A stretch of DNA of 13,846 nucleotides from a virus (IMGVR_UViG_2713896897_000012:1-13846), one strand, 5' to 3'. Positions 9,723-10,276 are shown, numbered from the stretch's first letter. Program-made: numbers and translations. Notes: generated by a model from the sequence alone, not told the origin.

Positions 9723-10276
9723 TTATCGCTGATTTTTCCGCTGTGCGTGTTGCATAGCGAGGTACTCGTTATAGCGGGGAATAGCGATCGTCTCCCACAT
9801 CAGGAACGCGTCTTCCAGCGAGTAGACAGTCCTCAACTCGTGGAGCGAGGCCCGCCCTTCTGCGACAATTGCGCCGATAAAGCCGTCAACGTTTTGGTAA
9901 TCAACGGAAGGAGCTTCGCTTTTAAAGCGCCGGAGGAAAGTAAGCTCCTTCCGGTCGCGAAAAAACTCACGTTGTATTCCATCATCGCCATTTCGACTTT
10001 GCCGAGAATCTCCCAGTCCGGGCAGTGGTTGTTCACAAGCGCGCGCGTGGTCAGGCGTAATGGCGTGCCGTTAATATCGACGGCTACGTAACCCATCAGT
10101 TTGAGCATGGTCTCTTCGTTGACCGCGTAGTCGCCCACTTTTGGCATTGCGCTGACCGGGTATTTACAGACAATCTCCCGGCCCTCGATTGCCGGGAATT
10201 TGCTGATGATGTACGTGCGCTCAGTGCCGCCCTGGTCAACAGCTTTGAACTCTTTCGGTTGGATTAGCTCTGCCAT
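9723..10276 (-). CDS. Tail assembly chaperone, predicted -1 frameshift fusion product (about 184 aa; P2 E+E' / lambda GT analogue)
   Basis: Hand translation: after codon 106 (TTC at 9959-9961) the -1 frame is open for 78 codons (RDRKELTFLRRFKSEAPSVDYQNVDGFIGAIVAEGRASLHELRTVYSLEDAFLMWETIAIPRYNEYLAMQHAQRKNQR) to a TAA at 9723-9725. This fills the otherwise unexplained 152-nt gap before the tape measure gene. Confidence 0.6.
9833..10276 (-). CDS. Tail assembly chaperone, short in-frame product
   Basis: 147-aa ORF between the tube and tape measure genes; its ATG overlaps the tube stop by 1 nt (TGATG). Contains an in-frame slippery heptamer near its 3' end. Confidence 0.75.
   Translation of the reverse strand: MAELIQPKEFKAVDQGGTERTYIISKFPAIEGREIVCKYPVSAMPKVGDYAVNEETMLKLMGYVAVDINGTPLRLTTRALVNNHCPDWEILGKVEMAMMEYNVSFFATGRSLLSSGALKAKLLPLITKTLTALSAQLSQKGGPRSTS
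9905..9965 (-). other. Programmed -1 ribosomal frameshift signal: slippery heptamer plus downstream stem-loop
   Basis: Minus-strand heptamer T_TTT_TTC at 9965..9959 in the zero frame (AGT TTT TTC), then a 5-nt spacer, then a 12-bp perfect stem (9953..9942 CGGAAGGAGCTT pairing with 9916..9905 AAGCTCCTTCCG) enclosing a 25-nt loop that contains a small internal hairpin. Confidence 0.6.

Follow-up and report, generated by a model that had tools for sequence, protein, structure and literature searches.

[quoted passage not shown]

In the window analysed here (the whole 13,846-nt stretch of virus DNA, IMGVR_UViG_2713896897_000012:1-13846), a programmed −1 ribosomal frameshift in the tail assembly chaperone gene is a clear and supported reading of the sequence, because the same arrangement and the same junction recur in all 82 loci that have both halves of the gene, and the T-run holds the only invariant nucleotides. 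The initial annotation had proposed such an event, and the proposal is borne out by the position of the gene, an in-register U_UUU_UUC, a −1 ORF without a start at its head, the 82 loci, and the existing annotation of Burkholderia phage BcepB1A. The account that very probably explains the whole is that of a chaperone gene in which a slip at U_UUU_UUC would yield proteins of 147 and 184 aa, with a stem-loop as a roadblock. The frameshift itself is already known from the BcepB1A record, and what is new is this prophage copy only.

Based on Pfam and PHROGs, the window corresponds to the tail module of a contractile-tailed phage resembling E217/PB1, with a minus-strand gene order of collar (E217_gp28), gateway (E217_gp29), DUF3383 sheath (10729-12270), tube, chaperone gene, tape measure, Dit-like, plug, hub, and wedge. 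The chaperone gene is flanked directly upstream by the tail tube gene (10276-10719; PF22764 E217_Gp32, E 9e-59) and directly downstream by the gene for a 597-aa tape measure protein (7887-9680; PHROG tape-measure families, E down to 9e-48), which is the position of a lambda G/GT-type chaperone. Its source is an E217/BcepB1A-like contractile-tailed prophage of an Escherichia/Salmonella lineage. Elsewhere in the module, two minus-strand ORFs of the baseplate region in the mechanical ORF list (5228-5677 and 5580-6239) overlap by 98 nt, probably reflecting an over-extended TTG start.

Pfam (PF22764), PHROG 2420, and, for E. coli and Salmonella, PGAP all give the protein encoded at 10276-10719 and its homologues the name "tail fiber protein". 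The name seems to be an error handed on from one annotation to the next, since the location and size of the protein agree with the tail tube, as do the Pbunavirus cryo-EM papers; in Pbunaviruses, the tube is formed by a protein of ~150 aa encoded after the sheath (PMC11456595). A type I-E CRISPR spacer of 32 nt (GCGTCTCGAGCGCCGGACGATTCAAAACCAGC) matches the tube gene at 32 of 32 positions (10346-10315, minus strand), and the protospacer is preceded by AAG at 10349-10347, the canonical I-E PAM. Arrays with this spacer were detected in 42 of 5,426 complete E. coli genomes, and E. coli strains thus carry an immunity memory against this prophage family.

The anatomy of the frameshift site can be read directly from the minus strand. 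The 0-frame chaperone ORF (9833-10276; 147 aa) starts at an ATG at 10276, which overlaps the TGA of the tube gene (cTGATGg), ends at a TGA at 9835-9833, and would give the short, G-like (TAC-N) product. Reading and translating the strand confirmed this ORF and, 106 codons into it, the slippery heptamer T_TTT_TTC (U_UUU_UUC; 9965-9959) in the 0-frame X_XXY_YYZ register. The surrounding codons are AGT TTT TTC, the two Phe being codons 105-106, and the P- and A-site tRNA-Phe could both re-pair in the −1 frame. From the re-read C at 9959, the −1 frame runs RDRKEL...KNQR for 78 codons, the length originally given, to a TAA at 9725-9723. This extension (9723-9959; T-like or TAC-C domain) is supported by translation, by tblastn of relatives, and by PHROG profiles. 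Joined to residues 1-106, it gives a predicted long product of 184 aa next to the short one of 147 aa, and translation recovered both of the sizes first predicted.

The 152-nt "gap" between the 0-frame stop and the tape measure gene is coding. Two details of the earlier description needed correction: the distance from the −1 stop to the tape-measure start (ATG 9680) is 42 nt rather than 43 nt, and this is not the only large apparent gap in the operon, as the 210-nt stretch at 703-912 also lacks a long ORF (the mechanical ORF list has only one of 52 aa there). The coding strand of the window has five T6Y heptamers, of which only that at 9965-9959 leads into a long −1 ORF, and the −1 frame is open for at least 78 codons at ~6% of the operon codon positions. 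The sole −1-frame ORF with its own start is a TTG ORF of 37 aa (9836-9723), less than half of the conserved 78 aa, so independent initiation cannot explain the conservation of the −1 frame. By reading, no upstream Shine-Dalgarno-like stimulator was visible in the 9 nt before the heptamer in the window or its relatives; an AAGGAG does occur downstream of the heptamer, within the 5' arm of the stem described below, and is not followed by a start codon.

Other repeats and signals were observed in and around the tape measure gene. T6Y and A-run heptamers are over-represented in the window (26 found vs 10.8 expected), and the tape measure gene has an A8 run (GAA AAA AAA TCT; 8244-8251, minus strand) in a Lys-rich stretch, which forms an in-frame A_AAA_AAA slippery heptamer at 8250-8244. 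Between the −1 stop (9723) and the tape-measure RBS GGAGGG and ATG at 9680 sits a terminator-like hairpin with a T-tract (9719-9690, minus strand), consisting of CGGGCCGT-CATT-GCGGCCCG followed by CTTCTTTTTT. This element could lower the expression of the tape measure and baseplate genes relative to those of the sheath and tube. GC hairpins of this sort with a T-rich stretch behind them were found only in four enterobacterial members (the window and loci L004, L088, and L089), among which only the window and L004 have the hairpin followed by at least the T4 looked for. At many or most of the other loci, the tape-measure start directly follows the −1 stop or overlaps it.

The fused 184-aa sequence was used as a tblastn query against phage genomes, with BcepB1A as the best match (54-59% identical), and another 83 loci came from scans of viral and bacterial contigs. 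No near-identical genome turned up when the locus was compared by Megablast with the phage collection, and the relatives were found at the protein level. In 82 of 82 loci with both halves (window included; 39-95% aa identity; tblastn), the C part lies in the −1 frame relative to the N part, with the N/C junction at one and the same aligned position. The heptamer at that position was TTTTTTC (n = 53), TTTTTTT (n = 27), TTTTTTG (n = 2), GTTTTTT (n = 1), or TTTCTTC (n = 1), i.e., U6Y or U6G in 82 of the 84 loci compared. When 72 distinct sequences were placed in an ungapped 79-column alignment, the only invariant columns were T2, T3, T5, and T6 of the T-run.

Both frames are maintained beyond the slip site. 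Within the first 35 codons past it, the 73 unique loci have a single stop in the 0 frame and none in the −1 frame, as compared with stops in 72 of 73 in the +1 control frame, and the mean pairwise identity is 0.49 in the −1 frame, 0.39 in the 0 frame, and 0.36 in the +1 control. The 0 and −1 frames are both open in the overlap of these loci and each has a recognisable consensus peptide, indicating that ~40 codons are dual-coding. The short form keeps a conserved private tail of 41 aa after the slip site.

A few loci deviate at the junction. In one (L078), the T-run and the reading frame are out of step by a single base (GTTTTTT). In Yersinia phage vB_YenM_P744 (L002:2827-2833), TTTCTTC replaces the T-run and the −1 frame begins to be open just one codon earlier, which would leave a slip there with the U_UU.C tetramer alone; in the GenBank record of this phage the short ORF is the only one of the two annotated, under the name "tail assembly chaperone protein". 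Escherichia phage RCIP0363 (Wifcevirus; L003:2507-3028) encodes both chaperone domains in a single frame of 173 aa (27% identity). This homologue aligns gap-free across the junction, has no T-run there (FGFLSDWK), and is shared with ~25 related E. coli phages; in this lineage the gene apparently yields only the long form, or the short form is made in some other way. A 191-aa protein (P0005; L087, ENA contig_13562) was considered as a natural in-frame fusion and rejected, because the sheath and other genes of that contig are fragmented, which indicates a homopolymer assembly error.

PHROG profiles, including phrog_20369 "tail assembly chaperone" (E 6e-8), align across the junction, while the 67-aa phrog_3976 corresponds to the distal part called as a separate ORF by some phage annotators. 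A Pfam-A scan of both products gave no family at E ≤ 0.01, and NCBIfam and PDB sequence searches of the chaperone gave no match. The AF2 model of the chaperone had a pLDDT of 62, and its BFVD matches were Q6IWV4 (52% identical, without a name) and a "Tape measure chaperone" of Burkholderia phage Maja; as evidence on the fold, these results lend support without being strong. Escherichia albertii has the identical 147-aa protein (WP_059215180.1), and prophages of E. coli, E. fergusonii, and Salmonella have near-identical copies, each entered as "hypothetical protein" with the frameshift unannotated. This label recurs in genomes of Escherichia, Salmonella, and Superficieibacter, whose annotations lack the long product.

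The window gene is a homologue of the annotated BcepB1A gp15/15' and a functional analogue of P2 E/E+E' and lambda G/GT. In BcepB1A (AY616033), gp15 (E) and gp15' (E') are already annotated in GenBank as "pre-tape measure frameshift protein". The relationship is one of true homology, with aa identities of 59% in the N part and 51% in the C part (tblastn, C part E 1e-22), a shared order of sheath, tube, chaperone, and tape measure, TTTTTTC at the same aligned position, and a −1 extension that is likewise of 78 codons. The two differ in that BcepB1A has no comparably stable stem (its 60-nt segment past the heptamer is at the 61st percentile), and in that BcepB1A has a Burkholderia host and is described as virulent, whereas the copy in the window belongs to an Escherichia/Salmonella prophage lineage in which the frameshift is unannotated.

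In phage P2, a −1 slip at TTTTTTG, in a gene that sits between those for tube and tape measure, gives E and E+E' (Christie et al. 2002, as described in PMC3091744). The likeness extends to the contractile tail, the U6N slippery run, short and long products from one start, and a gene just before the tape measure, but no sequence relation is detectable and the Pfam-A scan gives no gpE family, so the resemblance is functional only. A downstream hairpin is reported to be absent or rare in P2 and its relatives (PMC3091744), whereas a stem is common after the heptamer in the family of the window. The P2 products are of 91 aa (E) and 142 aa (E+E'), as against 147 and 184 aa here, and unlike in P2 the short form has a conserved 41-aa tail of its own past the slip site. 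The private tail and the common stem are departures from the usual description, and we regard them as modest variations.

Lambda, a siphovirus, has another heptamer and slips a few codons ahead of the end of G. Its gpG/gpGT resemble the window proteins in the −1 slip near the end of the chaperone gene, but have no sequence homology to them. In lambda, the N-domain is the binding partner of the tape measure and the −1 domain that of the major tail (tube) protein, and the slip frequency fixes the ratio (Levin 1993 and Xu et al. 2004, reviewed in PMC5009743); by analogy, the window domains may have corresponding roles. A −1 frameshift with an invariant GTTTTT motif was also proposed for the tail chaperones of Pakpunavirus and Andersonviridae (PMC12846349). 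These are myovirus chaperones as well, with a poly-T slip motif across divergent genomes and a downstream ORF that annotations often wrongly list as a hypothetical gene of its own (PMC12846349). They belong to another phage family and are likened by description, and downstream structure is not discussed in PMC12846349.

From these comparisons we infer how the slip, the product ratio, and the two domains may work. The majority of ribosomes would read through the heptamer and make the 147-aa short form, and a minority, with tRNA-Phe on UUU in the P site and on UUC in the A site, would slip back by one base. Both tRNAs would then re-pair on UUU, and translation of the −1 frame for 78 codons would give the 184-aa form. 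If lambda G/GT and P2 E/E+E' are a guide, the N-domain common to both forms may coat the tape measure protein, the −1-encoded C-domain of the long form may recruit the tube protein and so link tape measure to tube, and the slip frequency may set the ratio of short to long forms. The stem-loop 5 nt past the heptamer would most likely be a roadblock that raises this frequency. In E. coli, H_HH.U_UU.Y heptamers are among the most efficient −1 motifs, and downstream structure raises their efficiency (PMC4066793).

The stem-loop of the window begins after a 5-nt spacer, GCGAC (9954-9958). The 5' arm (CGGAAGGAGCTT; 9942-9953) and the 3' arm (AAGCTCCTTCCG; 9905-9916) were identified both as an inverted repeat and in the predicted fold, in agreement with the perfect 12-bp stem of the initial annotation (9953-9942 pairing with 9916-9905), and the minimum-free-energy structures add a small apical hairpin, CGCTT-TAA-AAGCG (9917-9929), in the loop of the long stem. 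RNA structure prediction, one of the checks originally suggested, indicated that the stem dominates the ensemble (P(G7-C53) = 0.999), with a structure energy of −23.6 to −25 kcal/mol, the value for the stem and apical hairpin together being −23.6 kcal/mol. A competing local hairpin (CCGGAAGGAG/CTTTCCTCCGG; −10.8 kcal/mol) was discarded, being unpopulated in the predicted ensemble. The 13.8 kb of the window contain only two perfect inverted repeats of at least 12 nt whose arms lie within 80 nt of each other. The 60 nt past the heptamer rank among the most stable 1.7% of 60-nt segments in the local 3.5 kb. For the 91-nt stretch taken as a whole, the z-score is only −1.67. A stable structure thus starts within ~5-9 nt past the heptamer, where a stimulator would be expected.

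Across the family, it is the location of the 5' arm that recurs. In 50-54% of the 73 unique loci, positions +7 to +12 are predicted as the 5' arm of a stem at P ≥ 0.9, compared with 7% of random segments and 10% of trinucleotide-matched segments of those loci, figures that overstate the evidence because the related loci are not phylogenetically independent. In most relatives the 5' arm starts 5-7 nt past the heptamer and the 3' partners differ. The partner of +7 varies by lineage, lying at ~+40 (GGGCGA/TCGCCC and variants), +48, +50, +53 (the window and its enterobacterial relatives), or +64 (GGGAAAGG/CCTTTCCC), and a locus with 74% aa identity (L093) has an unrelated 12-bp stem (GACGCCAGAATC/GGTTCTGGCGTC). 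The segment after the heptamer was among the most stable 5% of its own locus in 26% of the loci, and contiguous anchored helices of at least 7 bp were only ~2-fold enriched over controls.

A single consensus structure for the family was tried and dropped, as neither of the two helices tested (columns 14-19/42-47 and 14-21/64-71) holds across the alignment, in which ~60% of cells were paired vs 55% in shuffles. Family-wide covariation was weak, with counts barely above controls, and no Rfam match was found at E ≤ 1 in 9600-10300. The earlier claim of a "clear" stimulator therefore holds in part: the hairpin is strong here and the position of its 5' arm is recurrent, but no single helix is conserved, covariation is weak, and BcepB1A and P744 lack a strong stem. 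On balance, it is plausible, and somewhat favoured, that the stem-loop acts as a frameshift stimulator. We put forward more tentatively, at a little under even confidence, that the stimulator is kept by position and not by sequence, with a 5' arm 5-7 nt past U6Y and a 3' partner that lineages have repeatedly swapped.

The frameshift may also be real while the stem-loop is no stimulator, being incidental, a by-product of the overlapping frames, or an element with another role such as mRNA stability or translation pacing. We consider this the less probable reading, though one with several observations in its favour. Besides the absence of a family-wide helix and of strong covariation, no strong stem was predicted after the heptamer in BcepB1A or Yersinia phage P744, and single uncompensated changes weaken the stem in two close Salmonella relatives. 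Phage chaperone frameshift sites, those of the P2 type included, are generally reported to function without downstream structure (PMC3091744), and in E. coli many of the hairpins predicted close to candidate frameshift motifs were considered fortuitous (PMC4066793). Against it, a 5' arm 5-7 nt past the heptamer has the canonical spacing, pairing at the arm position (P ≥ 0.9) is ~5-fold more frequent than in matched controls, lineages differ in the arm sequence at that place, with several unrelated versions, and the stem of the window is one of only two perfect 12-bp inverted repeats in 13.8 kb.

The same 184-aa protein could be made without any ribosomal slip if RNA polymerase added one U within the T6 run. 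The site is indeed a homopolymer of T6-T7 at which an inserted U gives an identical peptide, so that the two mechanisms would look alike in mass spectrometry, homopolymer heptamers have been noted as slippage-prone (PMC4066793), and the off-register GTTTTTT of L078 would be tolerable for slippage that is independent of frame. Such transcriptional slippage is nevertheless improbable here, as the X_XXY_YYZ register is kept in nearly all loci. The T-runs do not exceed 7 in any of the 84 loci, and productive transcriptional slippage in bacteria usually needs runs of ~8-9 or more. The TTTCTTC of P744 has no run at all and retains the U_UU.C slip tetramer (tetramer ranking in PMC4066793). The hairpin 5 nt downstream also has the geometry of a ribosomal signal, whereas the stem-loops of polymerase slippage lie upstream of the run.

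That there is no recoding, with the region past the 0-frame stop non-coding or an independent small gene such as the TTG ORF that spans this stop, would fit public annotations, which call the 147-aa ORF only, and the separate phrog_3976, but it is effectively excluded because the −1 peptide is conserved from the heptamer onward, 41 codons ahead of any possible start, with an identical frame relation and junction in every locus with both halves and with profiles and a natural single-frame homologue that cross the junction.

With ribosomal frameshifting as the preferred reading, another lineage joins a textbook recoding event, and the "hypothetical protein" entries of these prophages would hide a long chaperone product. 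If the stimulator is indeed kept by position, the family would document the turnover of a recoding signal inside a stretch that encodes two conserved overlapping frames, and would run counter to the view that downstream structure is seldom used in the frameshifts of phage tail chaperones. The ~70 natural variants, in which the heptamer is fixed and the hairpin differs, could be used to ask how hairpins tune the ratio of short to long chaperone forms.
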